Below, in pieces: positions 6,879 to 55,582 of a stretch of DNA of 64,000 nucleotides. Below the pieces are notes generated by a model that saw only the letters and a list, made by a program, of their open reading frames with translations, was not told where the DNA came from and ran no database searches. The stretch lies in the NCBI RefSeq assembly GCF_057098645.1, contig NZ_CM169472.1; one strand, given 5' to 3'. Numbering within the stretch: the stretch's first letter is position 1; every line of letters starts with the position of its first letter. A program made the position numbers and the translations under genes.

Positions 6879-8074
<1,196 letters not shown>

Positions 8075-23884: not shown

Positions 23885-24408
23885 TCGCTCTGTGTAAAAA
23901 GCAGTTCAATGGATTTGGTTGGGAAAAATAACGCATTTTCGTTTTCCCCGACCAACGGGATAAAGCCCAGCGATTTATAAAACGTATGGGCTTTTTCATT
24001 CAGCGCCTCTACAAAAAGACCGTGAATACCTACTGCTAAAGAGGCTGACCAGACGACTTTCATGGCATGAGCAACCAGTGTTGCTCCCCATCCCTGCCCC
24101 TGTATTGAATGATCAATTGCCAGACGCCCAAGAGTGACGCTGGGAATATTTTTGTAGGGAATTTTTTTCTGTTTCGATTTCGAGGGCAATGCGGCTCGTT
24201 CAAAACAACTGCCGCATAATGTGTAATATCCCAGCACCTGACGTTCTGGAGTGTTGCGACAAAGGATATACGCTCGCAGAATTTTGTTGCGATGTTGACG
24301 AACGAGATGTGTCGTCAGAAAGAGATTTAACGCTTCCTCGCCGCAGTCGAATCGCTGTAGATCATAATCTGCATCATCGGTCAGAATCTCTATCGTCAGA
24401 TCATCCAT
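23881..24408 (-). CDS. GNAT-family toxin of a type II TA system (AtaT/TacT/ItaT-like aminoacyl-tRNA acetyltransferase)
   Basis: 175 aa; acetyl-CoA motif QGQGWGATLVAHAM; immediately downstream of, and 7 nt from, an RHH/DUF1778-like ORF; stop overlaps the panM stop convergently. Confidence 0.8.
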   Translation of the reverse strand: MDDLTIEILTDDADYDLQRFDCGEEALNLFLTTHLVRQHRNKILRAYILCRNTPERQVLGYYTLCGSCFERAALPSKSKQKKIPYKNIPSVTLGRLAIDHSIQGQGWGATLVAHAMKVVWSASLAVGIHGLFVEALNEKAHTFYKSLGFIPLVGENENALFFPTKSIELLFTQSD

Positions 24409-24414
24409 AAATTA

Positions 24415-24681
24415 TTACATTCCCTGAAGACGTTTTACCGCACGTTTTAGCTTTTCACCTGGTGACGGTGGATTACTCAGCGCATCCATCACCCGCGTCC
24501 AGGATTCCTCATTGAGGATCACCCGCCGATGCTGTTCAATCACTTCCGCAGCCCGCTGCGAAGCGCTGTTCAACATAAATTGGCTGACGGACTGATTAGA
24601 TATCGCTGCCGCTTCCTCAATCATACTTTTGTCATCGTCAGTTAAACGCAGATCGATACGCTGCTTTTTAACAGCAGACAT
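24415..24681 (-). CDS. DUF1778/RHH-type antitoxin (AtaR/TacA-like)
   Basis: 88 aa; typical antitoxin N-terminus (KKQRIDLRLTDDDKSMIEEAAAISNQSVSQFMLNSA); GGAGAG SD; first gene of the two-gene operon. Confidence 0.8.
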   Translation of the reverse strand: MSAVKKQRIDLRLTDDDKSMIEEAAAISNQSVSQFMLNSASQRAAEVIEQHRRVILNEESWTRVMDALSNPPSPGEKLKRAVKRLQGM

Positions 24682-24694
24682 GTGAACTCTCCTG

Positions 24695-39964: not shown

Positions 39965-40354
39965 ATGAGACATTACATGAAATGGTTTGCGGCTATTGCT
40001 GTTGTGGGTGCTTTAGCGGGTTGCGCGCGTACTGCGCCAATTGTTCAGGTTCACTCAACCGTCAGCGCTGGTCATACCCAGGAACAAGTGAAAAAAGCGA
40101 TTCTGAAAGCTGGCGTTGAACGCAAATGGATTATGTCCGAAGCCGGACAAGGCATAATTAAAGCACGTCAACAGTCACGCGATCATTCAGCGGAAATACG
40201 CATTAACTACACGGCATCCAGCTACGATATCAATTATGAAAATAGCCAGAACCTACAAGCGTCAGGCGGACAAATTCATAAAAACTACAATCGCTGGGTC
40301 CGCAATCTCGACAAAGATATTCAACTGAATTTGTCAGCGGGCGCAGATTTATAA
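39965..40354 (+). CDS. Small lipoprotein, first gene of the APE-like cluster
   Basis: 129 aa; signal peptide with lipobox (VVGALAGCA); preceded by about 380 bp of AT-rich leader. Confidence 0.55.
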   Translation: MRHYMKWFAAIAVVGALAGCARTAPIVQVHSTVSAGHTQEQVKKAILKAGVERKWIMSEAGQGIIKARQQSRDHSAEIRINYTASSYDINYENSQNLQASGGQIHKNYNRWVRNLDKDIQLNLSAGADL

Positions 40355-40413: not shown

Positions 40414-41481
40414 GTGCCCAACATGTACGAACAGGATTCTCTTAGCGCACTGGATGCGATTACCGAAGCTCAACGCATTGCCTTTGCCCCTATGCTTTTT
40501 CAAACAGCACTCTGCCTACGTAATGCGGGTGTACTTTCATATCTGGATCGGCAAGGCAAACATGGCGCAACGCTGGCTGATATCACCGAACATAGCCATA
40601 TCAACGAATATGCTGCCAGCGTTCTGTTAGATATGGGCTTAAGCGGGCGAATTATTACCTGTAAAGAGGGAATTTATTACCTGGCGAAAATCGGTCATTA
40701 CCTCCTGCATGACACTATGACTCGCGTGAATATGGATTTCACCCAGGATGTCTGTTACCAGGGGCTCTTCTTCCTCGCCGATTCACTCAATGAAGGAAAA
40801 CCTTCCGGGTTAAAAGTATTTGGCGACTGGTCGACGATATATCCGGCACTTTCGCAATTACCAGACGCCGCTCGTGAAAGCTGGTTTGCGTTTGATCATT
40901 ACTATTCAGATGGCGCATTTAACGCCGCACTGCCTTATGTATTCGCCAACAACCCCACAACATTGTACGATGTAGGCGGCAATACGGGTAAGTGGGCTTT
41001 GCGTTGCTGCAAATACAATGAAAACATCGCCGTGACGTTATTAGATCTGCCACAACAAATCGTACTAGCGAAAGAAAATATCGCGAATGCAGGTTTTTCT
41101 GATCGCATAGATTTCCATGCGGTGGATATGCTAAGCGATGCCCCATTACCGGGCGAGGCTGATATCTGGTGGATGAGCCAATTTTTAGACTGTTTTTCAC
41201 CCGAACAAATAATTAGCATACTCAGCAAAATCGCCAGCGTAATGAAGCCTGGCGCAAAAGTTTGCATCATGGAGTTGTTCTGGGATGCGCAGCGGTTTGA
41301 AGCAGCATCATTTAGCCTGAACGCGTCCTCACTTTATTTTACCTGCATGGCAAACGGTAACAGCCGTTTCTATAGTGCAGAGAAATTTTACGACTATCTG
41401 AATAAAGCAGGATTCCAGGTAGCAGAGCGCCACGATAATTTAGGCGTTGGGCATACACTTTTGATATGCCAAAAGAAATAA
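40414..41481 (+). CDS. Class I SAM-dependent O-methyltransferase
   Basis: 355 aa; N-terminal dimerisation-like region and Rossmann fold DVGGNTGKWA; track start is GTG 40414, an ATG lies at 40423. Confidence 0.7.
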   Translation: MPNMYEQDSLSALDAITEAQRIAFAPMLFQTALCLRNAGVLSYLDRQGKHGATLADITEHSHINEYAASVLLDMGLSGRIITCKEGIYYLAKIGHYLLHDTMTRVNMDFTQDVCYQGLFFLADSLNEGKPSGLKVFGDWSTIYPALSQLPDAARESWFAFDHYYSDGAFNAALPYVFANNPTTLYDVGGNTGKWALRCCKYNENIAVTLLDLPQQIVLAKENIANAGFSDRIDFHAVDMLSDAPLPGEADIWWMSQFLDCFSPEQIISILSKIASVMKPGAKVCIMELFWDAQRFEAASFSLNASSLYFTCMANGNSRFYSAEKFYDYLNKAGFQVAERHDNLGVGHTLLICQKK

Positions 41482-41521: not shown

Positions 41522-42244
41522 ATGAAATTTACATTAAATATTACCGACTGGCAGGCACTGGCGCCTGGACTTAGCGAAGCGCAGCAATGGCAAGCATGGT
41601 CGCGCCAGCCGTGGGCGATTGACCCTGCCGCGCCGTTGGCAAAATTAAGTGAACTGCCAATGATGACCGCCCGCCGCCTCAGTTCAGGCAGCAAACTGGC
41701 TGTTGAATGCGGTCTGGCAATGCTACGCCGCCATCAGCCAGACGCCGTTTTGTATACCAGTCGTCATGGCGAACTGGAGCGCAATTACCGCATTGTTCAT
41801 GCACTGGCAACCGAACAGGCGCTTTCTCCGACCGACTTTGCACTTTCAGTACACAACTCTTCCGTGGGTAACCTGACCATTGCGGCCAAACAGCCGATCG
41901 TTTCGTCATCGCTTTCTGCTGGTCGCGACACTTTCCAGCAAGGTTTGTGTGAAGTGCTTAGCCTGTTACAAGCGGGATACCAGCGCGTGCTGATGGTCGA
42001 TTTTGACGGTTTCCTGCCCGAGTTTTATCACCCACAACTGCCATCAGAAATGCCGACCTGGCCGTACGCCGTCGCGCTGGTGATTGAAGCTGGCGATGAC
42101 TGGCAATGTGAAACGCAGTCAGCCATTGCGGGCAATGAAACAACACTGCCGCAAAGCATGTTGTTTTTACAGCACTATTTACAAAATGTAGACACATTTT
42201 CACTGCCTGGCGAGCGCGTGCAATGGCGCTGGAGCCACAGATGA
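41522..42244 (+). CDS. Ketosynthase-like protein lacking the active-site Cys (chain-length-factor-like partner)
   Basis: ORF track 41498..42244; start moved to ATG giving MKFTLNITDWQ; thiolase-fold-like N-terminal half, no Cys-His-His triad. Confidence 0.6.
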   Translation: MKFTLNITDWQALAPGLSEAQQWQAWSRQPWAIDPAAPLAKLSELPMMTARRLSSGSKLAVECGLAMLRRHQPDAVLYTSRHGELERNYRIVHALATEQALSPTDFALSVHNSSVGNLTIAAKQPIVSSSLSAGRDTFQQGLCEVLSLLQAGYQRVLMVDFDGFLPEFYHPQLPSEMPTWPYAVALVIEAGDDWQCETQSAIAGNETTLPQSMLFLQHYLQNVDTFSLPGERVQWRWSHR

Positions 42245-43062
42245 GTAAGCTGATGTCACGTCTGGAGTGGACCTGGCGACTGGTCATGACCGGGTTATGT
42301 TTTGCCCTGTTTGGTCTCGGCGGCCTGCTGCTTTCTGTCGTGTGGTTTAACATATTGTTAGTTTTGGTGTGGGATACTTCCCGCCGCCGTCGTTTGGCGC
42401 GTCGCAGCATTGCCGCCAGTTTTCGCCTGTTTTTAACTGTCGCGAAAGGGCTTGGCGTGCTGGATTATCGTATTGATGGCGCTGAAATTTTACGTCAGGA
42501 ACGCGGTTGCCTCGTCGTAGCCAATCATCCCACGCTGATCGATTACGTGCTGCTGGCGTCAGTCATGCCAGAAACTGACTGCCTGGTGAAAAGCGCGCTG
42601 TTAAAAAATCCTTTTCTTGGCGGCGTCGTGCGGGCGGCAGATTATTTAATCAACAGCGAAGCTGAAACCCTGTTACCCCGCTGCCAACAGCGACTGGCAC
42701 AGGGTGACACTATCCTGATTTTCCCCGAAGGCACGCGAACGAAGCCCGGTGAAAAAATGACGCTGCAGCGCGGGGCGGCGAATATTGCCGTGCGCTGTGC
42801 CAGCGATTTACGCATCGTGACGATCGGCTGTAGCGAGCATCTGCTGGATAAACAAAGTAAATGGTATGACGTTCCACCTGACCGGCCGTTTTTTACGGTT
42901 GCAGTCCATGGTCGGGTTGAAATCAATAAATTTTACGATGCAACTTCACAAGAACCGGCGCTGGCAGCAAGGCAGTTAAACCGGCATCTTTTGCTTCAAT
43001 TACAACAAGGTTGTTTACCTCTCTCAGGAATAAATAATGCAAGCGCTTTATCTGGAAATTAA
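42241..43062 (+). CDS. Lysophospholipid (1-acyl-glycerol-3-phosphate-type) acyltransferase
   Basis: HX4D motif NHPTLID and FPEGTR motif; ATG overlaps previous stop (ATGA). Confidence 0.75.
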   Translation: MSKLMSRLEWTWRLVMTGLCFALFGLGGLLLSVVWFNILLVLVWDTSRRRRLARRSIAASFRLFLTVAKGLGVLDYRIDGAEILRQERGCLVVANHPTLIDYVLLASVMPETDCLVKSALLKNPFLGGVVRAADYLINSEAETLLPRCQQRLAQGDTILIFPEGTRTKPGEKMTLQRGAANIAVRCASDLRIVTIGCSEHLLDKQSKWYDVPPDRPFFTVAVHGRVEINKFYDATSQEPALAARQLNRHLLLQLQQGCLPLSGINNASALSGN

Positions 43063-43294
43063 AAACCTCATCATCAGCACCCTCAATCTGGACGAGTTGA
43101 CGCCTGATGATATCGATACCGACGCGCCGCTGTTTGGCGACGGTTTAGGGCTGGACTCTATCGATGCCCTGGAACTGGGACTGGCAGTAAAAAATGAGTA
43201 CGGCATCGTGCTCTCTGCGGAAAGCGAAGAGATGCGTCAGCACTTTTTCTCCGTCGCCACTCTGGCCTCTTTCATTGCTGCGCAACGTGCCTGA
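43037..43294 (+). CDS. Acyl carrier protein 1
   Basis: 85 aa; phosphopantetheine attachment motif GLDSIDALEL. Confidence 0.8.
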   Translation: MQALYLEIKNLIISTLNLDELTPDDIDTDAPLFGDGLGLDSIDALELGLAVKNEYGIVLSAESEEMRQHFFSVATLASFIAAQRA

Positions 43295-43305
43295 GGAAAG
43301 CCATC

Positions 43306-43557
43306 ATGACAGAACAACAAACCGTCTATCAGGAAGTCTCAGCCCTGCTGGTTAAGCTGTTTGAAATCGATCCGCAGGACATCAAACCTGAAGCGCGCCT
43401 GTACGAAGATCTGGAACTGGACAGCATCGACGCCGTTGACATGATTGTGCACCTGCAAAAGAAAACCGGTAAGAAAATCAAGCCGGAAGAGTTTAAAGCC
43501 GTGCGTACAGTCCAGGATGTCGTCGAGGCTGTAGAACGCCTGCTACAAGAAGCCTGA
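43306..43557 (+). CDS. Acyl carrier protein 2
   Basis: 83 aa; motif LELDSIDAVDM. Confidence 0.8.
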   Translation: MTEQQTVYQEVSALLVKLFEIDPQDIKPEARLYEDLELDSIDAVDMIVHLQKKTGKKIKPEEFKAVRTVQDVVEAVERLLQEA

Positions 43558-43561
43558 TCTG

Positions 43562-44143
43562 ATGTCGGGCATTCGCTCGCTACCGATGATTAAGCTGCTG
43601 ACTGGATTATTGCTGCTCGCCTGGCCGTTTGTGATTTGGTTTGGCTTAGCGCATAACGGCCTGCACTGGCTGTTACCGCTAATGGCGTTGCTGCTTTTGT
43701 TGCGTCTGCGCCAGACCCGTCGCCAGGCGGGGCCTTTACAAGCCGTCACGCAACTCGTCGCTGTCGTGGGCATCGCATTATGTGTCGCCAGCTTTATGTT
43801 GAAAACGCACCAGCTACTGCTGTTTTACCCGGTAGTGGTTAACGCGGTCATGCTGGCGGTTTTTGGCGGTTCGCTGTGGTCGGCAATGCCGATAGTTGAG
43901 CGGCTGGCGCGGTTGCAGGAGCCAGACCTCCCGGAAAAGGGCGTGCGCTATACCCGCCACGTCACGCAAATCTGGTGCGGCTTTTTCATCATTAACGGTG
44001 GAATTGCCCTCTTTACCGCGCTTTATGCCGATATGTCGTTATGGACCGCCTGGAACGGCATGATTGCTTATTTGTTGATGGGGACGTTAATGGCTGGTGA
44101 ATGGCTGCTGCGCCGTCAGGTGATGAAAAGAGATCGCGCATGA
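43562..44143 (+). CDS. Polytopic membrane protein of unknown function
   Basis: 193 aa with several hydrophobic helices; conserved position after the ACP pair. Confidence 0.55.
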   Translation: MSGIRSLPMIKLLTGLLLLAWPFVIWFGLAHNGLHWLLPLMALLLLLRLRQTRRQAGPLQAVTQLVAVVGIALCVASFMLKTHQLLLFYPVVVNAVMLAVFGGSLWSAMPIVERLARLQEPDLPEKGVRYTRHVTQIWCGFFIINGGIALFTALYADMSLWTAWNGMIAYLLMGTLMAGEWLLRRQVMKRDRA

Positions 44144-45501
44144 AGCAGACCTTACCGCTTGCACGCTGGCTGACTGCGCCACGCCCTGATGACACACCCA
44201 TTGCGTGGCTGGACGAAAGCTTCTGGACGCTGGGCGATTTGCGTCACGATGTCGCGCAACTTATCTGCCGCTTGCAGCAACAGCCGGGTGAACGCTGGGC
44301 GCTGTGCTTTGAGAACAGCTATCTGTTTATCGTTGCCCTGCTCGCCACGCTACACGCCGGAAAAACGCCGGTGCTTCCGGGGCATAACCGTGTTATCCAG
44401 CTTAACGAGCAACGTGAACTTTTTGATGGTGTGCTTAGCGACAGCGAACTTAACTGGCAAGGTTCATTGCTGTTGGTAGCAAGTTCTCCACAAATCGCGA
44501 CACAATCCTTCACCTTTTCCGCTATAGCGCCAGAGGCTTTTATCGAGCTGTTTACCTCTGGTTCCACGGGACAGCCGAAGCGGGTGATTAAACCTGTTCA
44601 TTTGCTGGACCGTGAAGCAGAACTGCTGGCTGAACGATTAGGCGCACGTCTGGCGGGTTGTCGTGTCGTCGGTTCCGTATTGCCGCAGCATTTGTACGGC
44701 CTGACTTTTCGCGTTTTCCTGCCAATGGCGCTGGGATTACCCCTACATGCCGCCATGCTCTGGTATGTCGAACAGTTTGCCGCGTTGAGTCATCAGCATC
44801 GCTATATCTTCATCAGCAGCCCGGCATTTTTGAAGCGTCTGGATACACAGATTTCCCCGCCCCCCGTTCAGGTGCTTCTCTCTGCTGGCGGTGAGCTACC
44901 GTGGCAGGACGTACAACACACCGCGAACTGGCTGCGCGTCTGGCCTGATGAAATCTACGGCAGCACGGAAACCGGCGTCATTGCCTGGCGTTACCGCGAT
45001 CAGGAGCAACGCCGCTGGCAGCCCTTCCCCGGTATGCAGTTCCGGGCCGAAGGGAATGCATTTCGTCTCTTTTCCCCGCTGATGACGGAAGATAACGGCC
45101 TGTTACTCGACGATATCTTACAGTTTAGCGAAGATGGTCAGTTCCATCTGATGGGGCGTCGCGGACGCATCGTTAAGATTGAAGAAAAACGTATTTCGTT
45201 GCAGGAAGTGGAACAACGTCTGCTGGCACTGGACGGTATTCGCGAGGCGGCGGCAGTTCCTGTTACGCGCGGCGGGCGTCAGAGCATAGGCGTTTTGCTG
45301 GTGCTGGATGACGAAGCTCGTCTGCAATGGCAGAACGGCGGCGGGCATAGCCAGGAAATGACCTGGCGGCGATTACTACGCCCGACGCTGGAGCCTGTTG
45401 CCATTCCGCGTTACTGGCGCGTTATTGATGAAATGCCAGTAAACAGTATGAACAAGCGTGTCTATGCGCAATTACAGGAGTTATTTCATGAAGCCCCATG
45501 A
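44140..45501 (+). CDS. AMP-dependent synthetase/ligase (acyl/aryl-adenylating enzyme)
   Basis: AMP-binding motif TSGSTGQPK; ATG 44140 overlaps previous stop (ATGA). Confidence 0.8.
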   Translation: MKQTLPLARWLTAPRPDDTPIAWLDESFWTLGDLRHDVAQLICRLQQQPGERWALCFENSYLFIVALLATLHAGKTPVLPGHNRVIQLNEQRELFDGVLSDSELNWQGSLLLVASSPQIATQSFTFSAIAPEAFIELFTSGSTGQPKRVIKPVHLLDREAELLAERLGARLAGCRVVGSVLPQHLYGLTFRVFLPMALGLPLHAAMLWYVEQFAALSHQHRYIFISSPAFLKRLDTQISPPPVQVLLSAGGELPWQDVQHTANWLRVWPDEIYGSTETGVIAWRYRDQEQRRWQPFPGMQFRAEGNAFRLFSPLMTEDNGLLLDDILQFSEDGQFHLMGRRGRIVKIEEKRISLQEVEQRLLALDGIREAAAVPVTRGGRQSIGVLLVLDDEARLQWQNGGGHSQEMTWRRLLRPTLEPVAIPRYWRVIDEMPVNSMNKRVYAQLQELFHEAP

Positions 45502-45841
45502 AATCGAGCGCCATCAGGCACAAGCGAATCACCTTGAGATTGTTTTGCATCTCAGGGCAGATCTGTTCTGGTTTCGCGGCCATTTTGCCGTGCAACCATT
45601 ACTCCCTGGCGTGGCACAAATCGACTGGGCAATGAGTTACGCGCTTGCCCTGCTCGCGCCTGGCTGGCGTTTTCACTCCATTCAGAACATAAAATTTCAG
45701 TCTCCGTTGCTGCCGGAAAACCGCGTCACGCTCACGCTTAACTGGCAGGAAGATCGCCAGATTCTGAGCTTTAGCTATCAGCGTCACGACGGTGACGCCC
45801 GCCACACCGCCAGTAGCGGGAAGATCCGCCTATGTCGGTAA
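45488..45841 (+). CDS. Hotdog-fold 3-hydroxyacyl-ACP dehydratase-like protein
   Basis: 117 aa from ATG 45488 (MKPHEIERHQ...); overlaps the ligase stop. Confidence 0.5.
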   Translation: MKPHEIERHQAQANHLEIVLHLRADLFWFRGHFAVQPLLPGVAQIDWAMSYALALLAPGWRFHSIQNIKFQSPLLPENRVTLTLNWQEDRQILSFSYQRHDGDARHTASSGKIRLCR

Positions 45842-47508
45842 ACTTTTCGCCCTGCGTGTTGATCCCCTGCTACAACCACGGCGCGATGATGCCGGGCGTG
45901 CTGGCGCGTCTTAAGCCATTTAATCTGCCCTGTATTGTGGTGGACGACGGCAGCGATGCCGCCACGCAACAGCAACTGGACAGTCTGCTTGCCGAGCAGC
46001 CTGGCGTGACTTTAATTCGCCTGGCAGAAAACGCAGGCAAAGGCGCGGCGGTGATGTACGGCTTACAGGCGGCGAAAGACGCGGGCTTCAGCCATGCGGT
46101 GCAGGTGGATGCTGACGGTCAACATGCGATTGAAGATATCCCCAAACTGCTGGCAGTCGCTGAACAACACCCTGCGGCGCTGATCTCCGGCCAGCCAATT
46201 TACGATGACTCCATCCCCCGCTCACGGCTTTACGGGCGCTGGGTCACCCACGTCTGGGTATGGATCGAAACGCTCTCCCTGCAACTGAAAGACAGCATGT
46301 GCGGTTTTCGCGTTTATCCGGTTGCGCCGACGCTGCAACTGGCAAAACACGCCACCATCGGCAAGCGGATGGATTTCGACACTGAAGTGATGGTGCGCCT
46401 CTACTGGCAGGGAAACACCAGCTATTTCGTGCCGACCCGCGTCACCTATCCACTGGACGGGCTTTCACATTTTGATGCCCTGAAAGATAACGTCCGCATC
46501 TCGCTCATGCACACGCGTCTGTTTTTCGGCATGTTGCCGCGTATTCCTTCACTGCTGATGCGCCGCTCTTCCAGCCACTGGGCGCGGCAGAGTGAAGTGA
46601 AAGGATTATGGGGAATGCGCCTGATGCTGCTGGTCTGGCGTCTGCTGGGAAGAACGGCGTTTAGCGCGCTGCTTTACCCGGTGGTGGGCGTCTACTGGCT
46701 CACTGCTTCTCGTGCGCGCAAAGCGTCGCAAGACTGGCTCGCCCGTGTACGACAGCATCAACCACAGGCGGCAAAACTCAACAGCTATCAGCACTTTCTA
46801 CGTTTCGGTAATGCCATGCTCGACAAAATCGCCAGCTGGCGCGGCGAGCTACAACTGGGGCGTGATGTGCTGTTTGCGCCAGGCGCAGAAGCGGCGCTTG
46901 ACGTCCGCGATCCGCGCGGCAAATTGCTGCTGGCCTCGCATCTTGGCGATGTGGAAGTGTGCCGGGCGCTGGCAAAAATTCAGGGCTACAAAACCATTAA
47001 CGCGCTGGTGTTTAGCGAAAACGCCCAACGCTTTAAACAGATAATGCAGGAGATGGCCCCGCAGGCTGGTATCAACCTGATGCCGGTAACAGATATCGGC
47101 CCGGAAACCGCCATCCTGCTAAAAGATAAGCTGGATAACGGCGAATGGGTGGCGATTGTCGGCGACCGCATCGCCGTCAACCCGCAACGCGGCGGCGACT
47201 GGCGCGTCTGCTGGAGTCCGTTTATGGGCCAGCCTGCGCCTTTCCCACAGGGGCCATTTATTCTCGCGTCTATTTTGCGCTGCCCGGTGAATCTGATTTT
47301 CGCCCTACGCCAGCACGGCAAGCTGCATATTCACTGCGAAACCTTTGCCGACCCGCTGCTGTTGCCGCGTGGCGAACGCCAACAGGCGCTGCAAAACGCT
47401 ATCGACCACTACGCCGCGCGTCTGGAACATTACGCGCTCCAGTCGCCCCTCGACTGGTTTAATTTTTTCGATTTCTGGCAACTGCCGGAAATTCAGGACA
47501 AGGAGTAA
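45832..47508 (+). CDS. Fusion protein: family-2 glycosyltransferase N-domain plus lipid-A-type (LpxL/HtrB-like) acyltransferase C-domain
   Basis: 558 aa; N-terminus CVLIPCYNHG...VVDDGSDA (GT2 signature); C-terminal half resembles lauroyl/myristoyl acyltransferases. Confidence 0.65.
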   Translation: MSVNFSPCVLIPCYNHGAMMPGVLARLKPFNLPCIVVDDGSDAATQQQLDSLLAEQPGVTLIRLAENAGKGAAVMYGLQAAKDAGFSHAVQVDADGQHAIEDIPKLLAVAEQHPAALISGQPIYDDSIPRSRLYGRWVTHVWVWIETLSLQLKDSMCGFRVYPVAPTLQLAKHATIGKRMDFDTEVMVRLYWQGNTSYFVPTRVTYPLDGLSHFDALKDNVRISLMHTRLFFGMLPRIPSLLMRRSSSHWARQSEVKGLWGMRLMLLVWRLLGRTAFSALLYPVVGVYWLTASRARKASQDWLARVRQHQPQAAKLNSYQHFLRFGNAMLDKIASWRGELQLGRDVLFAPGAEAALDVRDPRGKLLLASHLGDVEVCRALAKIQGYKTINALVFSENAQRFKQIMQEMAPQAGINLMPVTDIGPETAILLKDKLDNGEWVAIVGDRIAVNPQRGGDWRVCWSPFMGQPAPFPQGPFILASILRCPVNLIFALRQHGKLHIHCETFADPLLLPRGERQQALQNAIDHYAARLEHYALQSPLDWFNFFDFWQLPEIQDKE

Positions 47509-47511
47509 AGG

Positions 47512-47934
47512 GTGCTTAACGATCCCCGATTTACCGCTGAAGTCGAGCTGACCATTCCCTTTCACGACGTCGATATGATGGGCGTGGCCTGGCACGGTAA
47601 CTATTTTCGCTACTTTGAAGTGGCCCGCGAGGCGCTGCTCAACCAGTTCAATTACGGCTATCGGCAGATGAAAGAGTCCGGTTATTTGTGGCCAGTGGTC
47701 GATGCGCGGGTGAAATATCGCCACGCCCTCACCTTTGAGCAACGCATCCGCGTGCGTGCGCATATCGAAGAGTTCGAAAACCGTCTGCGGATTGGCTATC
47801 AGATTTTCGATGCCGAAACGGGCAAACGCGCCACCACCGGATACACCATTCAGGTCGCGGTCGACGAGCAAAGTCGCGAACTGTGCTTTGTCAGCCCCGA
47901 TATTCTGTTTGAACGCATGGGAGTCAAATCATGA
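47512..47934 (+). CDS. Hotdog-fold acyl-CoA/ACP thioesterase (4HBT/YbgC-like)
   Basis: 140 aa; motif HDVDMMGVAWHGNYFRYFE. Confidence 0.7.
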   Translation: MLNDPRFTAEVELTIPFHDVDMMGVAWHGNYFRYFEVAREALLNQFNYGYRQMKESGYLWPVVDARVKYRHALTFEQRIRVRAHIEEFENRLRIGYQIFDAETGKRATTGYTIQVAVDEQSRELCFVSPDILFERMGVKS

Positions 47935-48536
47935 AATTTTTACCGCTGCTGGCGCTGCTGATTAGCCCGTTTGTGAGCGCCCTGAGCCTGGACGATCTTC
48001 AGCAACGCTTTACCGAACAGCCGGTGATCCGCGCCCATTTCGATCAAACCCGGACGATTAAAGATCTGCCGCAGCCGCTGCGATCTCAGGGCCAGATGTT
48101 GATCACCCGCGACCAGGGGCTGTTGTGGGATCAAACCTCACCGTTCCCCATGCAACTATTACTGGACGATAAACGCATGGCGCAGGTGATCAACGGTCAG
48201 CCGCCGCAAATCATCACGGCAGAAAATAACCCGCAGATGTTCCAGTTTAACCACCTGCTGCGCGCGCTGTTCCAGGCCGATCGCAAAGTGCTGGAACAAA
48301 ACTTCCGCGTCGAATTTGCCGACAAAGGCGAAGGCCGCTGGACGCTGCGCCTGACGCCGACCACCACGCCACTGGATAAAATTTTCAACACCATCGATCT
48401 CGCCGGGCAAACCTATCTGGAGAGCATTCAGCTTAATGATAAACAGGGCGATCGCACCGATATTGCTCTTACCCAACATCAACTGACACCAGCGCAACTG
48501 ACCGATGACGAACGCCAACGTTTTGCCGCCCAGTAA
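47931..48536 (+). CDS. LolA-like outer-membrane lipoprotein carrier protein
   Basis: 201 aa; signal peptide MKFLPLLALLISPFVSA; size and pattern of LolA/LolB-fold proteins. Confidence 0.55.
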   Translation: MKFLPLLALLISPFVSALSLDDLQQRFTEQPVIRAHFDQTRTIKDLPQPLRSQGQMLITRDQGLLWDQTSPFPMQLLLDDKRMAQVINGQPPQIITAENNPQMFQFNHLLRALFQADRKVLEQNFRVEFADKGEGRWTLRLTPTTTPLDKIFNTIDLAGQTYLESIQLNDKQGDRTDIALTQHQLTPAQLTDDERQRFAAQ

Positions 48537-50823
48537 ACGCCCCGCGCTGTTATGGGGGCTAGTCTGCCTGGTCATGGCGGCGGCGTTGCTGATCCTGCTG
48601 CCGCAATCACGGCTGAACAGTAGCGTGCTGGCTATGTTACCCAAACAGGCGATGGGCGATATTCCCCCAGCGCTGAATGACGGCTTTATGCAGCGTCTGG
48701 ACCGCCAACTGGTGTGGCTGGTCAGCCCCGGTAAAGAGGCTAATCCCAGGGTCGCTCAGGAGTGGCTGACGCAGCTGCAAAAATCCGCTGCGCTTGGCGA
48801 CATTAAAGGGCCAATGGATGCCGCCAGCCAGCAGGCGTGGGGAGCGTTTTTCTGGCAGCACCGCAACGGCCTGATTGACCACGACACCCGCGCCCGCCTG
48901 CAAAACGGCGGCGAAGCGCAGGCGCAGTGGATCCTCTCCCAGCTTTATTCTGCATTCTCCGGGGTAAGCGGCAAGGAGCTGCAAAACGATCCGCTGATGT
49001 TAATGCGCGGCTCGCAGCTGGCGATGGCAAAAAATGGCCAGCGTTTGCGGCTGATGGACGGCTGGCTGGTGACGCAGGATCCCCAGGGCAACTACTGGTA
49101 TCTGCTGCACGGCGAACTGGCGGGATCGTCGTTTGATATGCAGCAAACCCACCAGCTCATCACGACCCTGAATACGCTGGAAAAGGATCTGAAAACGCGT
49201 TACCCACAGGCGCAGTTGCTCTCGCGCGGCACGGTATTTTACAGCGATTACGCCAGTCAACAGGCGAAGCAGGATATCTCAACCCTGGGCGTGGCAACGC
49301 TGCTGGGGGTGATATTGCTGATTGTGGCGGTGTTCCGCTCTTTGCGTCCGTTGCTGCTTTGCATGATTTCCATCGGCATCGGCGCGCTGGCGGGAACGGT
49401 CGCCACATTGTTGATTTTCGGTGAATTACACCTGATGACGCTGGTGATGAGCATGAGCGTTATCGGCATTTCCGCTGACTACACACTCTATTATCTCACC
49501 GAGCGGATGGTGCACGGCAACGACGTTTCGCCGTGGCAAAGCCTGGCGAAAGTACGCAATGCCTTGCTACTGGCGCTGCTCACCACCGTGGCGGCATATC
49601 TGATTATGATGCTCGCCCCCTTCCCCGGTATCCGCCAGATGGCGATTTTTGCCGCCATCGGGTTGAGCGCCTCTTGTCTGACCGTCCTGTTCTGGCATCC
49701 GTGGCTGTGCCGTGGCCTGCCGGTGCGCCCGGTTCCGGCGATGGCGCTGATGCTACGCTGGCTGGCAGCGTGGCGGCGCAATAAAAAACTGTCGCTGGGT
49801 CTGCCCGTCGCGCTGGCGCTGTTTTCGCTGGCGGGGATGTCAATGCTGCGCGTCGATGACGATATCTCGCAGTTACAGGCGCTGCCGCAGCATATTCTGG
49901 CGCAGGAGAAAGCCATTACCGCCCTGACCGGACAAAGCGTCGATCAAAAATGGTTTGTAGTTTACGGCGACTTCCCACAGCAAACATTGCGGCGGCTGGA
50001 GACATTTACCACCTCACTGGAGAAAGCGAAAAAAGACGGCCTTATCAGCAACTACCGCACCATTCCGCTGAACTCCCTGGCGCGGCAGGAGGAAGATTTA
50101 GACCTGCTGAAAACGGCGGCCCCGACAGTAACAAAAGCGCTGCAAAATGCCGGGCTGACGGCAGTGAACCCGGATCTCAACGCCATGCCAGTGAACGTTG
50201 ATGAATGGCTGGCAAGCCCCGCCAGTGAAGGCTGGCGTCTGCTGTGGCTGACGCTGGAAAACGGCGAAAGCGGCGTACTGGTGCCGGTTGAAGGGGTTAA
50301 AAGTAGCGCGTTGATGCAGGAAATCGCCACATATTACCCTTGCGGCATTGCCTGGGTTGATCGCAAAAGCACCTTTGATGAATTGTTCGCACTTTACCGC
50401 TACGTCTTAACCGGCTTGTTGCTGGTGGCGCTGGCAGTGATTGCCTGCGGCGCAGTGGCCCGTCTCGGCTGGCGCAAAGGGCTTATCAGCCTGGTGCCTT
50501 CGGTGCTTTCGCTGGGCTGTGGTCTGGCGGTGCTGGCGATGAGCGGGCAGGCGGTGAATCTCTTTTCGCTGCTGGCGCTGGTGCTGGTGCTTGGCATCGG
50601 TATCAACTACACGCTGTTTTTCAGTAATCCGCGCGGTACACCGTTAACTTCGCTACTGGCGATCGCGCTGGCAATGCTCACCACCTTGCTGACGCTGGGA
50701 ATGTTGGTATTCAGCGCCACCCAGGCCATCAGCAGTTTTGGCATTGTGCTGGTGAGCGGTATTTTCACCGCCTTCCTGCTTTCGCCGCTGGCTATGCCCG
50801 ATAAAAAGAGAACAAAAAAATGA
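48505..50823 (+). CDS. MMPL/RND-superfamily exporter
   Basis: 772 aa; two blocks of TM helices separated by soluble loops; exact start uncertain (overlaps previous gene by 32 nt). Confidence 0.7.
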   Translation: MTNANVLPPSKRPALLWGLVCLVMAAALLILLPQSRLNSSVLAMLPKQAMGDIPPALNDGFMQRLDRQLVWLVSPGKEANPRVAQEWLTQLQKSAALGDIKGPMDAASQQAWGAFFWQHRNGLIDHDTRARLQNGGEAQAQWILSQLYSAFSGVSGKELQNDPLMLMRGSQLAMAKNGQRLRLMDGWLVTQDPQGNYWYLLHGELAGSSFDMQQTHQLITTLNTLEKDLKTRYPQAQLLSRGTVFYSDYASQQAKQDISTLGVATLLGVILLIVAVFRSLRPLLLCMISIGIGALAGTVATLLIFGELHLMTLVMSMSVIGISADYTLYYLTERMVHGNDVSPWQSLAKVRNALLLALLTTVAAYLIMMLAPFPGIRQMAIFAAIGLSASCLTVLFWHPWLCRGLPVRPVPAMALMLRWLAAWRRNKKLSLGLPVALALFSLAGMSMLRVDDDISQLQALPQHILAQEKAITALTGQSVDQKWFVVYGDFPQQTLRRLETFTTSLEKAKKDGLISNYRTIPLNSLARQEEDLDLLKTAAPTVTKALQNAGLTAVNPDLNAMPVNVDEWLASPASEGWRLLWLTLENGESGVLVPVEGVKSSALMQEIATYYPCGIAWVDRKSTFDELFALYRYVLTGLLLVALAVIACGAVARLGWRKGLISLVPSVLSLGCGLAVLAMSGQAVNLFSLLALVLVLGIGINYTLFFSNPRGTPLTSLLAIALAMLTTLLTLGMLVFSATQAISSFGIVLVSGIFTAFLLSPLAMPDKKRTKK

Positions 50824-51404
50824 TCAAACCCACATTCTGGCGAGCGTTTGCCCTGACCGCTACGCTTATCCTCACCGGCTGTAGCCACTCGCAACCAGAA
50901 CAGGAAGGCCGCCCGCAAGCGTGGCTGCAACCTGGCTCGCGCATCACGCTGCCTGCGCCGGGGATTTCACCCGCCGTCAATTCCCAGCAACTGTTGACCG
51001 GCAGCTTCAACGGCAACACCCAGTCGCTGCTAGTGATGCTTAACGCCGACGACCAGAAAATCACCCTTGCCGGACTGTCGTCGGTCGGCATTCGCCTGTT
51101 TCTGGTGACCTACGATGCGCAAGGGCTACGCGCCGAGCAATCCATCGTCGTCCCACAGTTACCGCCCGCAAGTCAGGTACTGGCTGACGTGATGCTCAGC
51201 CACTGGCCGATTAGCGCCTGGCAACCGCAACTTCCCGCAGGATGGACACTTCGCGACAACGGTGACAAACGCGAGCTGCGTAACGCCAGCGGCAAACTGG
51301 TCACGGAAATAACCTATCTGAATCGCAAGGGCAAACGCGTGCCAATCAGCATTGAGCAGCATGTCTTTAAATACCACATCACCATTCAATACTTAGGTGA
51401 CTGA
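50820..51404 (+). CDS. Lipoprotein of unknown function (DUF3261-like)
   Basis: 194 aa; lipobox LTGCSHS. Confidence 0.55.
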   Translation: MIKPTFWRAFALTATLILTGCSHSQPEQEGRPQAWLQPGSRITLPAPGISPAVNSQQLLTGSFNGNTQSLLVMLNADDQKITLAGLSSVGIRLFLVTYDAQGLRAEQSIVVPQLPPASQVLADVMLSHWPISAWQPQLPAGWTLRDNGDKRELRNASGKLVTEITYLNRKGKRVPISIEQHVFKYHITIQYLGD

Positions 51405-51405
51405 T

Positions 51406-52575
51406 ATGATTTATATTTCCGCCGTCGGCATGATCAACGCCCTGGGAAATAACCTTGACGATATCGCAGCCAACCTGACTCGCGGTGTCGCCCCCGGAAT
51501 GCGCCCACGCGCAGGCTGGTTGCAGGGGCATCCGCAGGCGGTCCTGGCTGGCGTGGATGGCGAGCTTCCGCTTATCCCGGAAAAATTCGCTGCGCATCGC
51601 TCGCGCAACAATCAGATCCTGCTGGCGGCGCTGGCGCAGCTCCAGCCGCAGGTTGATGACGCTATCGCGAAATATGGTCGCCAGCGCATCGCGATTGTAC
51701 TTGGCACCAGCACCTCCGGCCTGCATGAAGGCGACACGCACGTTAACCTGCGCACCCACGGGCAGCCGAGCACCACATGGCACTACGCGCAACAGGAACT
51801 CGGCGATCCGTCGCGTTTTCTCAGCCACTGGCTGGCGCTCGACGGCCCGGCCTATACCCTTTCAACCGCCTGCTCTTCCAGCGCCAGAGCGATAATCAGC
51901 GGGCGCAGGCTTATCGAAGCGGGGCTGGTCGATGCCGCCATTGTGGGTGGCGCAGACACCCTGAGCCGGATGCCGATTAACGGTTTTCACAGCCTCGAAT
52001 CGCTGTCGCCAACCTTATGTCAGCCGTTTGGTCGTGACCGCGCAGGTATCACCATTGGTGAAGGGGCGGGGCTAATGCTGCTGACCCGGGAACCGCAGCC
52101 CATCGCGTTGCTGGGCGTTGGTGAATCGAGCGACGCTTACCATATTTCAGCCCCGCATCCGCAGGGCGAAGGAGCGATCCGCGCTATTAATCAGGCGCTG
52201 ACCGATGCGCAGCTTACGCCAGATGACGTCGGCTATATCAACCTGCACGGCACCGCCACACAACTCAACGATCAGATTGAATCAATGGTGGTTAACGCCC
52301 TGTTTGGCGAACGCGTACCGTGCAGCTCCACCAAACATTTGACCGGACACACGCTGGGCGCAGCGGGCATTACCGAGGCGGCAATTAGTATGTTGATTTT
52401 ACAGCGTGATTTACCGCTGCCCGCTCAGGACTTCAGCCTGTCGCCGCGCGATCCCACGCTGCCACCGTGTGGCATTATCGAAAAACCGCAGCCGCTGGCA
52501 CGTCCGGTGATCCTGTCCAATTCCTTCGCCTTTGGCGGCAATAACGCCAGCATTCTGCTCGGGAGGGTTTCGTGA
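51406..52575 (+). CDS. Beta-ketoacyl-ACP synthase (active KS)
   Basis: ORF track 51397..52575; start moved to ATG giving MIYISAVGMINALGN; active-site Cys in TACSSS, His motifs HGTATQ and GHTLGAAG. Confidence 0.8.
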   Translation: MIYISAVGMINALGNNLDDIAANLTRGVAPGMRPRAGWLQGHPQAVLAGVDGELPLIPEKFAAHRSRNNQILLAALAQLQPQVDDAIAKYGRQRIAIVLGTSTSGLHEGDTHVNLRTHGQPSTTWHYAQQELGDPSRFLSHWLALDGPAYTLSTACSSSARAIISGRRLIEAGLVDAAIVGGADTLSRMPINGFHSLESLSPTLCQPFGRDRAGITIGEGAGLMLLTREPQPIALLGVGESSDAYHISAPHPQGEGAIRAINQALTDAQLTPDDVGYINLHGTATQLNDQIESMVVNALFGERVPCSSTKHLTGHTLGAAGITEAAISMLILQRDLPLPAQDFSLSPRDPTLPPCGIIEKPQPLARPVILSNSFAFGGNNASILLGRVS

Positions 52576-53036
52576 GCCACTATTTATCCCCCGGCGCTTA
52601 TCTGCCCCACGACGCGCCCATGTTACTGCTGGAAGACGTGGTGAGCGTCAGCGATGACAGCGCGGTGTGCCGCGTAACGGTCTCGCCCAGCGGCGTACTG
52701 GCACCGTTCCTCGACCCGGACGGCAATCTACCCGGCTGGTTTGCCCTTGAACTGATGGCGCAAACCGTCGGTGTCTGGTCTGGCTGGCATCGCCGCCAGC
52801 AGGGCAAAAACAGTATTGAGTTAGGGATGATACTGGGCGCGCGTGAATTGCTTTGCACCACTGGCATTCTGCCCGCAGGCCAGACGCTGACCATTACCGT
52901 CAAACTGCTGATGCAAGACGATCGCTTCGGCAGTTTTGAGTGCAGCATCAACGACGGCGAGGCGACGGGCCGCATTAACACCTTCCAGCCGACCGCGGAA
53001 GAACTTACCACCCTGTTTCAACAAGGAGCGTCCTGA
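52572..53036 (+). CDS. Hotdog-fold dehydratase
   Basis: 154 aa; GTG start overlapping the KS stop. Confidence 0.55.
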   Translation: MSHYLSPGAYLPHDAPMLLLEDVVSVSDDSAVCRVTVSPSGVLAPFLDPDGNLPGWFALELMAQTVGVWSGWHRRQQGKNSIELGMILGARELLCTTGILPAGQTLTITVKLLMQDDRFGSFECSINDGEATGRINTFQPTAEELTTLFQQGAS

Positions 53037-53767
53037 TGAGTCGTTCAGTTCTGGTTACTGGTGCCAGCAAAGGCATTGGTCGCGCCATCGCCTGCCAACT
53101 GGCGGCAGACGGCTTTAACATTGGCGTTCACTATCACCGTGACGCCACAGGCGCTCAGGAAACGCTGAATGCCATTGTCGCCAACGGGGGTAACGGGCGT
53201 TTGCTCAGTTTCGACGTCGCAAACCGCGAACAGTGTCGGGAAGTGCTGGAGCATGAGATCGCGCAACACGGTGCCTGGTACGGCGTGGTCAGTAACGCCG
53301 GGATCGCCCGCGATGCCGCTTTTCCGGCTTTAAGCGATGACGACTGGGATGCGGTGATCCACACCAACCTCGACAGTTTCTACAACGTCATTCAGCCGTG
53401 CATTATGCCGATGATCGGCGCACGCCAGGGTGGGCGCATCATCACGCTATCCTCGGTTTCCGGCGTAATGGGCAATCGCGGCCAGGTGAATTACAGCGCT
53501 GCCAAAGCCGGAATTATCGGCGCAACAAAAGCGCTGGCTATCGAACTCGCGAAGCGCAAAATCACCGTCAACTGCATCGCGCCGGGGCTTATTGATACCG
53601 GGATGATCGAAATGGAAGAGAGCGCTCTGAAAGAGGCAATGTCGATGATCCCCATGAAACGTATGGGCCAGGCGGAAGAAGTTGCCGGGCTTGCCAGTTA
53701 TTTAATGTCTGATATTGCGGGTTACGTCACCCGCCAGGTTATTTCCATCAACGGAGGGATGTTATGA
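53036..53767 (+). CDS. 3-oxoacyl-ACP reductase (FabG-like SDR)
   Basis: TGASKGIGRAIA Rossmann motif and YSAAKAG catalytic motif. Confidence 0.85.
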   Translation: MSRSVLVTGASKGIGRAIACQLAADGFNIGVHYHRDATGAQETLNAIVANGGNGRLLSFDVANREQCREVLEHEIAQHGAWYGVVSNAGIARDAAFPALSDDDWDAVIHTNLDSFYNVIQPCIMPMIGARQGGRIITLSSVSGVMGNRGQVNYSAAKAGIIGATKALAIELAKRKITVNCIAPGLIDTGMIEMEESALKEAMSMIPMKRMGQAEEVAGLASYLMSDIAGYVTRQVISINGGML

Positions 53768-54993
53768 CACGTCGCGTAGTGATTACAGGAATGGGCGGCG
53801 TGACTGCCTTTGGTGAAAACTGGCAGGACGTTTCTGCACGCTTACTGGCGTATGAAAATGCGGTGCGCAAAATGCCGGAGTGGCAGGTCTACGATGGCCT
53901 GCACACCCTGCTTGGCGCGCCTGTTGATGATTTCACGCTACCGGAGCACTACACCCGCAAGCGTATCCGTGCGATGGGCCGCGTGTCGCAAATGTCGACC
54001 CGTGCCAGCGAGCTGGCGTTAGAGCAGGCAGGGTTGATTGGCGATCCGATATTAACCAGCGGCGAAACGGGCATTGCGTACGGTTCATCGACCGGCAGTA
54101 CCGGCCCGGTAAGCGAGTTCGCCACCATGCTGACGGAAAAGCACACCAATAACATCACTGGCACCACCTATGTGCAGATGATGCCGCACACCACCGCCGT
54201 TAATACTGGCCTCTTTTTCGGCCTGCGCGGGCGGGTGATCCCAACCTCCAGCGCCTGTACTTCCGGCAGCCAGGCAATCGGTTATGCGTGGGAAGCCATT
54301 CGCCACGGTTATCAAACGGTGATGGTTGCTGGTGGTGCCGAAGAGTTATGTCCTTCAGAAGCAGCGGTATTTGATACGCTTTTCGCCACCAGCCAGCACA
54401 ATGATGCGCCGAAAACCACACCTTCACCGTTCGATGAAAACCGCGACGGGCTGGTGATTGGTGAAGGCGCAGGTACGCTCATTCTCGAAGAACTGGAGCA
54501 CGCCAAAGCGCGCGGCGCGACCATTTACGGTGAAATCGTCGGCTTTGCGACGAACTGCGACGCGGCACATATTACCCAGCCGCAGCGCGAAACCATGCAG
54601 TATTGTATGGAGCAATCGCTGAAAATCGCCGGGTTAAGCGCACAAGATATCGGCTATATTTCAGCGCATGGTACGGCGACCGATCGCGGTGATATGGCAG
54701 AAAGTCTGGCGACAGCAACCATTTACGGTGATAATGTGCCGCTCTCCTCGCTGAAAAGTTATTTTGGTCATACGCTTGGTGCCTGTGGCGCGCTCGAAGC
54801 CTGGATGAGTCTGCAAATGATGCGCGAAGGTTGGTTTGCGCCTACGCTAAACCTGAATAAACCAGACCCGAATTGTGGCGCGCTGGATTACATCATGCAT
54901 GAAGCCCGCAAGGTTGATTGTGAGTTTTTGCAGAGTAACAACTTTGCCTTTGGCGGCATTAATACATCCATCATCATTAAACGTTGGCCCTGA
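53764..54993 (+). CDS. Beta-ketoacyl-ACP synthase II-like (FabF-like)
   Basis: 409 aa; Cys in SSACTSGS, His motifs HGTATD and GHTLGACGA. Confidence 0.85.
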   Translation: MTRRVVITGMGGVTAFGENWQDVSARLLAYENAVRKMPEWQVYDGLHTLLGAPVDDFTLPEHYTRKRIRAMGRVSQMSTRASELALEQAGLIGDPILTSGETGIAYGSSTGSTGPVSEFATMLTEKHTNNITGTTYVQMMPHTTAVNTGLFFGLRGRVIPTSSACTSGSQAIGYAWEAIRHGYQTVMVAGGAEELCPSEAAVFDTLFATSQHNDAPKTTPSPFDENRDGLVIGEGAGTLILEELEHAKARGATIYGEIVGFATNCDAAHITQPQRETMQYCMEQSLKIAGLSAQDIGYISAHGTATDRGDMAESLATATIYGDNVPLSSLKSYFGHTLGACGALEAWMSLQMMREGWFAPTLNLNKPDPNCGALDYIMHEARKVDCEFLQSNNFAFGGINTSIIIKRWP

Positions 54994-54994
54994 T

Positions 54995-55582
54995 ATGTAT
55001 CGGATAGTTCTGGGGAAAGTTTCGACCTTAAGCGCAGCTCCACTGCCACCGGGTTTACGCGAGCAAGCACCGCAAGGTCCACGACGCGAACGCTGGCTGG
55101 CGGGGCGTGCATTGCTTTCGCACACGCTTTCCCCGCTACCGGAGATCATCTATGGCGAACAAGGCAAACCTGCATTTGCGCCGGAAACGCCGCTATGGTT
55201 CAACTTAAGCCATAGCGGTGACGATATCGCTCTGCTGTTGAGTGATGAAGGCGAAGTCGGCTGCGATATCGAAGTGATTCGCCCGCGCGCCAACTGGCGC
55301 TGGCTGGCGAACGCCGTATTCAGCCTCGGGGAACACGCTGAGATGGACGCCGTGCATCCTGATCAGCAACTGGAAATGTTCTGGCGCATCTGGACGCGCA
55401 AAGAAGCCATCGTTAAACAGCGTGGTGGCAGCGCCTGGCAAATCGTCAGCGTAGACAGCACCTATCACTCCTCGCTGTCAGTCAGCCATTGTCAGCTAGA
55501 AAATTTAAGCCTGGCGATCTGCACCCCCACCCCCTTTACGCTCACCGCCGACAGTGTGCAATGGATCGATTCAGTTAACTGA
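54995..55582 (+). CDS. acpT: 4'-phosphopantetheinyl transferase (holo-ACP synthase AcpT)
   Basis: ORF track 54875..55582; start moved to MYRIVLGKVSTLSAAPLPPGL; PPTase motifs (FNLSHSGD, WTRKEAIVK). Confidence 0.85.
   Translation: MYRIVLGKVSTLSAAPLPPGLREQAPQGPRRERWLAGRALLSHTLSPLPEIIYGEQGKPAFAPETPLWFNLSHSGDDIALLLSDEGEVGCDIEVIRPRANWRWLANAVFSLGEHAEMDAVHPDQQLEMFWRIWTRKEAIVKQRGGSAWQIVSVDSTYHSSLSVSHCQLENLSLAICTPTPFTLTADSVQWIDSVN

Follow-up and report, generated by a model that had tools for sequence, protein, structure and literature searches.

Start/stop overlaps in the aryl-polyene gene cluster of Escherichia coli O145:H28 are ordinary operon junctions that probably permit translational coupling without joining known heteromer partners

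Introduction

Do the start and stop codons that overlap between consecutive genes of a bacterial biosynthetic operon tie the translation of each gene to that of its neighbor, and do they match the amounts of the proteins that work together? The question is raised by a locus in a 64,000-nucleotide (nt) stretch of contig NZ_CM169472.1 (RefSeq assembly GCF_057098645.1), called the window below, which is 100% identical to the chromosome of Escherichia coli O145:H28 (window position = NZ_CP007136.1 position minus 4,267,461). Positions 41522-55582 of the window hold one co-directional array, apeC to apeR followed by acpT, from an aryl-polyene (APE) biosynthetic cluster. A prediction made earlier from the DNA letters of the window proposed that extensive overlaps between 42241 and 53036 imply translational coupling, and that they fit stoichiometric co-expression of ketosynthase/chain-length factor (KS/CLF), dehydratase, and acyl carrier protein (ACP) partners. 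Our analysis indicates that the region is likely to be a single, predicted polycistronic array in which ordinary overlaps permit coupling, and that these overlaps do not correspond to the known heteromer partners.

Results

Between yhhT, which ends at 39585, and nikA, which starts at 55693, the window carries 19 co-directional genes. By its sequence, the region is the E. coli APE cluster of the O-island 138 type, located between yhhT and acpT, because it combines the Pfam hallmark families, homologs of the proteins in PDB entries 6QSP and 6QSR, and the gene order of the apeA-R scheme, to which it is identical (PMC8253772). The hallmark matches are to the ApeI-like (PF22818, E=1.5e-39) and ApeP-like (PF22817, E=2e-41) families, and both the half-size chain-length factor ApeC (Ketoacyl-synt_2, PF13723, E=1e-66) and the ketosynthase ApeO, with its KS domains, are present. 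ApeC matches 6qsp_B (E=7e-92), while ApeI and ApeP match 6qsr_A and 6qsr_B, respectively, in structures from Xenorhabdus doucetiae. Further Pfam families in the region are two PP-binding, AMP-binding, GT2, 4HBT, LolA, MMPL, DUF3261, two KS, KR, and ACPS. The array thus contains the adjacent pair of free ACPs, the adenylating enzyme, the ketoreductase (KR), ApeR, the thioesterase, the LolA/MMPL/DUF3261 export genes, and the apeC-to-apeR order that characterize an APE gene set. A near-identical cluster in E. coli CFT073 makes a membrane-bound aryl-polyene pigment (PMC8253772), and the cluster of the O145:H28 strain encodes a predicted aryl-polyene pigment pathway. The cluster is accessory, occurring in 820 of 5,426 complete E. 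coli genomes (~15%).

Start sites were taken from the RefSeq annotation of the 100%-identical genome, made with the Prokaryotic Genome Annotation Pipeline (PGAP), and agree with a separate start-codon listing. From apeC to acpT, the 16 junctions measure -4, -26, +11, +4, -4, -14, -10, +3, -4, -32, -4, +1, -4, -1, -4, and +1 nt, where negative values are overlaps. All are +11 nt or tighter and 11 are overlaps: six of 4 nt (ATGA at 42241, 44140, 47931, 50820, and 53764, and GTGA at 52572), one of 1 nt (53036), and four that are longer (-26, -14, -10, and -32). Extensive overlap was therefore predicted correctly, and it goes further than was listed. Among the four ATGA or GTGA sites named in the original prediction, those at 42241 (apeC/apeD), 44140 (apeG/apeH), and 52572 (apeO/apeP, GTGA) hold. 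The ATGA string at 45488-45491 does not form such a junction, because its TGA does not lie in the reading frame of the ligase gene, which stops at 45499-45501 and so overlaps the next gene by 14 nt. The accompanying statement that other genes lie 0-10 nt apart describes the gaps of +4, +3, and +1, and leaves out the gap of +11 and the overlaps of -26, -14, -10, and -32. Three further overlaps lie within the same interval, ATGA at 47931 (apeK/apeL), ATGA at 50820 (apeM/apeN), and TGATG at 53036 (apeP/apeQ), and the array runs on past its end, with ATGA at 53764 joining apeQ to apeR and a single nucleotide separating apeR from acpT at 54995.

All of the genes are on the plus strand and, unless another source is given, their products are named from PGAP and Pfam. 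The first, apeC (41522..42244), encodes the chain-length factor that partners ApeO, and its stop codon (42242-44) is part of an ATGA overlap with apeD (42241..43062), for a protein of the lysophospholipid acyltransferase family. The start of apeE (43037..43294; ACP 1, Pfam PP-binding) lies 26 nt within apeD, and an 11-nt spacer that carries the Shine-Dalgarno (SD) motif GAGGAA precedes apeF (43306..43557; ACP 2, Pfam). After a gap of 4 nt comes apeG (43562..44143; PGAP), which encodes a membrane protein with no known domain and has no SD (-0.8 kcal/mol); its stop forms an ATGA overlap with apeH (44140..45501), for the adenylating (AMP-binding) enzyme. The dehydratase subunit that partners ApeP, annotated as a member of the FabZ family, is encoded by apeI (45488..45841; Pfam ApeI-like, residues 1-117), which starts 14 nt within apeH and has a strong SD, AGGAG. 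Ten nt within apeI begins apeJ (45832..47508), whose product consists of a glycosyltransferase-2 domain and a C-terminal acyltransferase-like half. The thioesterase gene apeK (47512..47934; Pfam) follows after 3 nt, with a GTG start and a strong SD, AAGGAG, and its stop is shared through ATGA with apeL (47931..48536), for a LolA-like carrier. The MMPL-family transporter gene apeM (48505..50823) starts 32 nt within apeL with no SD (+0.7 kcal/mol), and a further ATGA links it to apeN (50820..51404), for a DUF3261 lipoprotein. A 1-nt gap separates apeN from apeO (51406..52575), for the ketosynthase that partners ApeC, and the apeO stop lies in a GTGA with the GTG start of apeP (52572..53036; Pfam ApeP-like), which encodes the dehydratase subunit that partners ApeI and has a strong SD, GGGAGG. 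Finally, apeQ (53036..53767; ketoreductase, FabG2) overlaps apeP by 1 nt in TGATG, apeR (53764..54993; FabB-like ketosynthase) overlaps the apeQ stop in ATGA, and acpT (54995..55582; phosphopantetheinyl transferase) starts, with no SD, 1 nt after the apeR stop (TGAtATG).

Overlaps of -4 and -1 nt are the commonest junctions in prokaryotic operons. Bare tetramers are frequent in the 14 kb, with 69 ATGA and 68 GTGA, and the proper comparison is therefore with other gene junctions. Overlaps occur at 11 of 16 junctions in the cluster versus 12 of 39 co-directional pairs elsewhere in the window (Fisher p=0.015), and 11 of 16 junctions fall within -8 to +6 nt versus 707 of 2987 in E. coli K-12 (binomial p=1.7e-4), a background that is a summary figure of PMC10666635. 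When set against the 20 operon-internal junctions (<=50 nt) of the window, 12 of which overlap, the cluster is not enriched (Fisher p=0.73), nor is its -4 class (6 of 16 versus 8 of 20; p=1.0). The neighboring operons have junctions of -1, -4, -1, -4, and +5 (nik), -4, +1, and -4 (ugp), and -4, -4, and +1 (liv), and the dcw cluster of K-12 has, as listed in supplementary Table S2 of PMC10666635, +1, -4, +15, -14, -4, -7, +2, -1, -4, +53, and -8. The E. coli dcw and nikABCDE operons thus show the same mix of junction classes as the APE array, which differs from them in being longer, with 16 tight junctions in a row, and in being accessory. Overlaps of this kind are typical of E. coli operons, and only the length of the run stands out.

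No junction from apeC to acpT leaves room for an internal promoter or terminator. Promoter-like sites (13 versus 11.8 expected in shuffled sequence) and terminator-like sites (23 versus 21.9 expected) occur in numbers that are uninformative either way about whether the array is split. In E. coli O157:H7 EDL933, seven O-island 138 genes (Z4851-Z4861) change together when rpoS is mutated, their expression being 2- to 6-fold higher (PMC2907692). This rise in the rpoS mutant implies RpoS-dependent repression of O-island 138, with fold-changes that are uneven along the array (PMC2907692).

To follow the junctions across species, one genome per species was scanned, giving 80 loci, 78 of them from species other than Escherichia, that range from Citrobacter to Pantoea, Yersinia, Dickeya, and Tolumonas and have ApeJ identities of 64-85%. 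Genes apeC to apeR keep a colinear order in 79 of these loci, and one was flagged as non-colinear (L026, a Tolumonas metagenome-assembled genome, near a contig end). Values of -1362 for apeG/apeH in locus L024 and -732 for apeP/apeQ in locus L039, which likely reflect a frameshift, a pseudogene, or a mis-assigned open reading frame (ORF), were left out of the counts. In the 78 other Enterobacterales species, the geometry is kept junction by junction. The 4-nt overlap is found at apeC/apeD in 51 of 73 other species, at apeG/apeH in 58 of 74 (with -8 in 12 of 74), at apeO/apeP in 51 of 73, and at apeP/apeQ in 67 of 72, as well as at apeK/apeL in 74 of 79 species, at apeM/apeN in 58 of 74, and at apeQ/apeR in 70 of 72. 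The longer overlaps recur too: -14 at apeH/apeI in 67 of 78 species, -10 at apeI/apeJ in 62 of 78 (with -7 in 12 of 78), and -32 at apeL/apeM in 52 of 76 other species. The +1 junction of apeN/apeO is seen in 61 of 74 species, apeR and acpT are 1-3 nt apart in 49 of 50, and apeE and apeF are separated by 9-23 nt in all 74 other species, never overlapping. The apeD/apeE junction is hypervariable, with values of -137, -80, -71, -59, -26, -20, +2, and up to +59 among loci L003-L081. Loci with all 15 apeC-to-apeR junctions have 9-12 overlaps (median 11). In distant clusters (ApeJ identity 37-52%), for which genes were called independently, the genes mostly overlap by other lengths, and one distant cluster at 35% identity is loosely packed. 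As a descriptive result, this per-junction record from 78 species is new, if small.

Two of these junctions merit comment. The apeD/apeE junction (window 43037-43062) drifts between fixed neighbors, with an apparent lack of constraint on the C-terminal tail of ApeD. At apeP/apeQ (53034-53038), E. coli has the 1-nt TGATG form and 67 of 72 other species the 4-nt form, which looks like a lineage-specific switch between common junction types.

The strength of each SD was expressed as its hybridization energy with the anti-SD sequence. A strong, conserved SD lies within the upstream gene for apeD, apeI, apeK, apeL, apeP, apeQ, and apeR, and for apeK and apeR it is at or below -5.4 kcal/mol in 100% of species. 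The SD is weak or absent for apeM in 95% of species, for acpT in 86%, and for apeG in 79%; apeH and apeC belong to the same class, and the E. coli apeN SD is weak (-2.9 kcal/mol).

Upstream of the array, and separated from apeC by 40 nt, apeB (40423..41481; Pfam Methyltransf_2) encodes an O-methyltransferase. It is preceded, at a distance of 68 nt, by a small hypothetical lipoprotein-like gene (39977..40354; PGAP), which has no Pfam match and is present upstream in about three-quarters of related loci. In roughly half of the 78 Enterobacterales loci apeB was not detected, and the small lipoprotein-like gene is often kept. In distant APE clusters, a gene for an aromatic ammonia-lyase (PF00221) directly follows apeJ (L084, 11709-13253; L087, 6463-7995; L088, 4916-6442; L090, 7752-9284). 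In L084 the ammonia-lyase gene is followed by apeK, which is absent from that position in L087, L088, and L090. The E. coli cluster lacks an ammonia-lyase gene, in keeping with the use of 4-hydroxybenzoate supplied by UbiC (PMC8253772).

No known RNA element or tRNA was found in or next to the cluster, the only Rfam match in the window being the small RNA RyhB (RF00057, 83 bits) at 5193-5257 on the minus strand, the 5' end of which covers the final 11 nt of annotated yhhX. Elsewhere in the window, a low-GC patch (7342-9748; 37% in the 8-10 kb interval) contains a frameshifted pseudogene of tssD, for a type VI secretion tube protein, together with yrhA, yrhD, and a frameshifted yrhB. A toxin-antitoxin pair, ataT/ataR (23890-24690, minus strand), is located between panM and livJ and breaks the simple livJ-livK arrangement of the liv region.

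Discussion

In the arrangement that we favor, the array from apeC to acpT would be transcribed as a polycistronic mRNA. Its stop/start overlaps would be standard E. coli operon junctions, which easily arise and are hard to lose since a mutation in ATGA kills the stop or the start. Native overlapping pairs were strictly coupled in 13 of 14 cases, including four of five from E. coli with overlaps of -4 or -1 nt (PMC6728339), and coupling drops sharply as the distance grows, with very little left at +38 nt (PMC6728339; PMC10666635). By analogy with these pairs, translational coupling through termination-reinitiation is plausible at the 11 of 16 APE junctions that fall in the -8 to +10 nt class, the five outside it being -26, -14, -10, -32, and +11. 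The SD-poor genes apeG, apeH, apeM, apeN, and acpT would depend most on ribosomes arriving from upstream, and it is plausibly for them that coupling matters most, while apeD, apeI, apeK, apeL, apeP, apeQ, and apeR could also initiate alone from their strong SDs. The closest experimental counterparts are the hyfHI, menDH, astDB, and ydbH/ynbE pairs of Huber et al (2019, 2023), which like the APE genes are co-directional, overlap by -4 or -1 nt, and often carry an SD within the upstream gene. Their coupling was measured, whereas the APE junctions are known from sequence, and five of them are outside the range in which efficient coupling was tested.

Two rival readings concern the annotated starts and the pairing of subunits. 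Were the overlaps annotation artefacts, with the true starts further downstream, the genes would not overlap. In-frame alternatives do exist at apeD (ATG 42253), apeM (TTG 48523), and apeP (ATG 52620), and the annotated apeM start has no SD. However, Pfam profile alignments begin near the annotated start, at residue 1 of ApeI, residue 7 of ApeP, and residue 3 of ApeR, and the signal peptides of ApeL and ApeN open at the annotated methionine. The next candidate starts of apeH, apeL, apeN, and apeQ are 42 to 174 nt downstream, that of apeL inside the signal peptide. Depending on the gene, the start is colinear with the E. coli start in 50-100% of orthologs from the 78 other species, and distant clusters annotated by an independent gene caller overlap as well. 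Downstream starts that remove the overlaps were rejected on the Pfam coordinates, the signal peptides, and the cross-species conservation, and we regard an artefact as extremely improbable. For apeM, an N-terminal alignment gives a length comparable to that of distant homologs, and ATG 48505, with its 32-nt overlap, is a plausible start, with TTG 48523 as a possible alternative. The proposal that the overlaps enforce 1:1 production of interacting KS/CLF, dehydratase, and ACP partners, as in the original prediction, largely fails on the positions of the genes. The documented heteromers are ApeO:ApeC (PDB 6QSP) and ApeI:ApeP (PDB 6QSR) (PMC8253772; PMC8041823). The genes apeC (41522) and apeO (51406) are 11 genes and 9 kb apart, apeI (45488) and apeP (52572) are six genes and 7 kb apart, and no overlap joins the members of either pair. 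The ACP pair, apeE/apeF, is separated by a spacer with its own SD and is the one junction that never overlaps. The neighbors that do overlap, which encode a CLF and an acyltransferase, a membrane protein and the ligase, a thioesterase and a LolA-like protein, a KS and a dehydratase, and a KR and a KS, have no reported complexes. Tight E. coli pairs are 4.5-fold enriched for complex subunits (30.4% versus 6.8%), which lends the 1:1 proposal some general weight, yet only 30% of tight K-12 pairs encode complex partners and 70% do not (PMC10666635). ApeL, ApeM, and ApeN may form one export machine, and the ApeH-ApeI fusion of some lineages makes linked production of that neighboring pair plausible, but for the array as a whole we consider enforced 1:1 production very unlikely. 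Because the partner genes are 9 kb and 7 kb apart, their amounts would be matched only through the translation efficiency of each gene on the shared transcript.

Coupling through ordinary overlaps must also be weighed against the possibility that these overlaps play no part in regulation and are a side effect of gene packing, each gene initiating at its own ribosome-binding site. Several observations count against coupling. Its inference for the APE operon rests on analogy; a strong SD is present in 8 of 17 downstream genes, which could therefore initiate independently; and the junctions of -26, -14, -10, and -32 are beyond the range of efficient reinitiation. Partition-function calculations gave no sign that mRNA structure masks the start regions, as for most genes the unpaired probability was no lower than the in-cluster background, so that coupling by unmasking is unsupported and masking of downstream starts was rejected. 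From a study of ribosome recycling, Saito et al (2020) concluded, as discussed in PMC10666635, that coupling in E. coli does not work mainly through reinitiation. Conservation does not settle the matter: it is compatible with selection, and would also be expected without selection for coupling, because any change in ATGA destroys a stop or a start. Gene packing would account for the strong SDs embedded in upstream genes, for the unmasked starts and the conclusion of Saito et al, for an overlap frequency no higher than in neighboring operons, and for the free drift of apeD/apeE from -137 to +59; moreover, bioBF, one of the five E. coli pairs of Huber et al, initiated de novo (PMC6728339). It accounts less well for apeM, acpT, and apeG, which have no SD in 79-95% of species yet are tightly joined to their upstream genes and therefore need another route to initiation. 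The strict coupling of four of five native E. coli overlapping pairs (PMC6728339) and the retention of -4 at seven junctions, each in 51-74 of ~75 species, against variation at others, also speak against it, and we judge it rather unlikely that packing is the whole explanation. A stronger form of coupling, in which the SD-less downstream genes at apeF/apeG, at apeL/apeM with its 32-nt overlap, and at apeR/acpT are obligately coupled, can be offered as a tentative and doubtful extension. If true, the cell would make ApeM and AcpT in step with APE operon translation, at a low ratio, and the near-silence of acpT in K-12-type strains would be explained, as no upstream ribosome flow would reach its SD-less start.

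One neighboring pair, apeH/apeI, has comparative support for linked production, although it is not an ATGA junction. In two distant metagenomic clusters, ApeH and ApeI are encoded as one ORF (L087, 3296-4813; L089, 2977-4677), ApeH spanning residues ~13-446 and ApeI, after it, residues ~410-555, and ApeI is fused to the ApeH C terminus in Acinetobacter baumannii (PMC8041823). Given these fusions, the 14-nt overlap in E. coli (45488-45501), across which apeI is shifted to the +1 frame with respect to apeH, marks a split domain boundary, and linkage of this pair is plausible on comparative grounds. Despite this link, apeI has its own strong SD. A programmed +1 frameshift that would produce an ApeH-ApeI fusion was considered and set aside as speculative, given the SD of apeI and the lack of an obvious slippery or prfB-like motif in the 14-nt overlap on inspection by eye, with no motif scan.

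At the other end of the array, acpT is effectively the last gene, because it has no SD and a single nucleotide lies between its start and the apeR stop. The term "orphaned AcpT" reportedly comes from De Lay and Cronan. In E. coli genomes that lack the cluster (L092, 1467-1523), acpT is still directly preceded by the final 19 nt of apeR with the stop codon. The 20 bases before the acpT ATG are identical to those of the window (54975-54997), and the spacer between yhhT and acpT measures 54 nt. This apparent apeR remnant fits deletion of the cluster in K-12-type lineages. According to PMC8253772, which cites De Lay & Cronan (2006), AcpT activates homologs of ApeE and ApeF.

The overlaps are real but routine, and they have already been noted in the literature. 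For the CFT073 cluster, Johnston et al (2021; PMC8253772) reported overlaps among several of the ORFs and considered a polycistronic cluster probable, and they designed their deletions around the overlaps. Their apeA-R cluster has the same gene set and order as that of the window and near-identical genes, with a published apeR primer that differs by 1 nt from window positions ~54853-54874. Its locus tags (c1186-c1204) suggest a different chromosomal site, and it is described as having no dedicated phosphopantetheinyl transferase (PMC8253772), whereas in the window acpT is 1 nt from apeR. O-island 138 of E. coli O157:H7 EDL933 occupies the same position, between yhhT and acpT, and its two carrier proteins are, as reported in PMC8253772, modified by AcpT. 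Its genes are co-regulated (PMC2907692), and we found no difference between it and the cluster of the window, which is from O145:H28. The APE systems of X. doucetiae and A. baumannii (PDB 6QSP, 6QSR; PMC8358021; PMC8041823) share the enzyme families and the ApeO:ApeC and ApeI:ApeP pairs with E. coli. ApeH and ApeI form a single fused protein in A. baumannii and the two metagenomic clusters, and are split in E. coli, where the genes overlap by 14 nt and apeI has a separate SD.

The import of these findings is low, as earlier publications already cover the cluster and its products, the heteromeric enzymes, and the overlap of the ORFs. For the biology of the pathway, they mean that the amounts of ApeO:ApeC and ApeI:ApeP cannot be set by coupling between neighbors and that acpT behaves as the terminal gene of the APE array. 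Gene deletion or engineering in the APE cluster must preserve both the overlaps and the embedded ribosome-binding sites, as in the work of Johnston et al.

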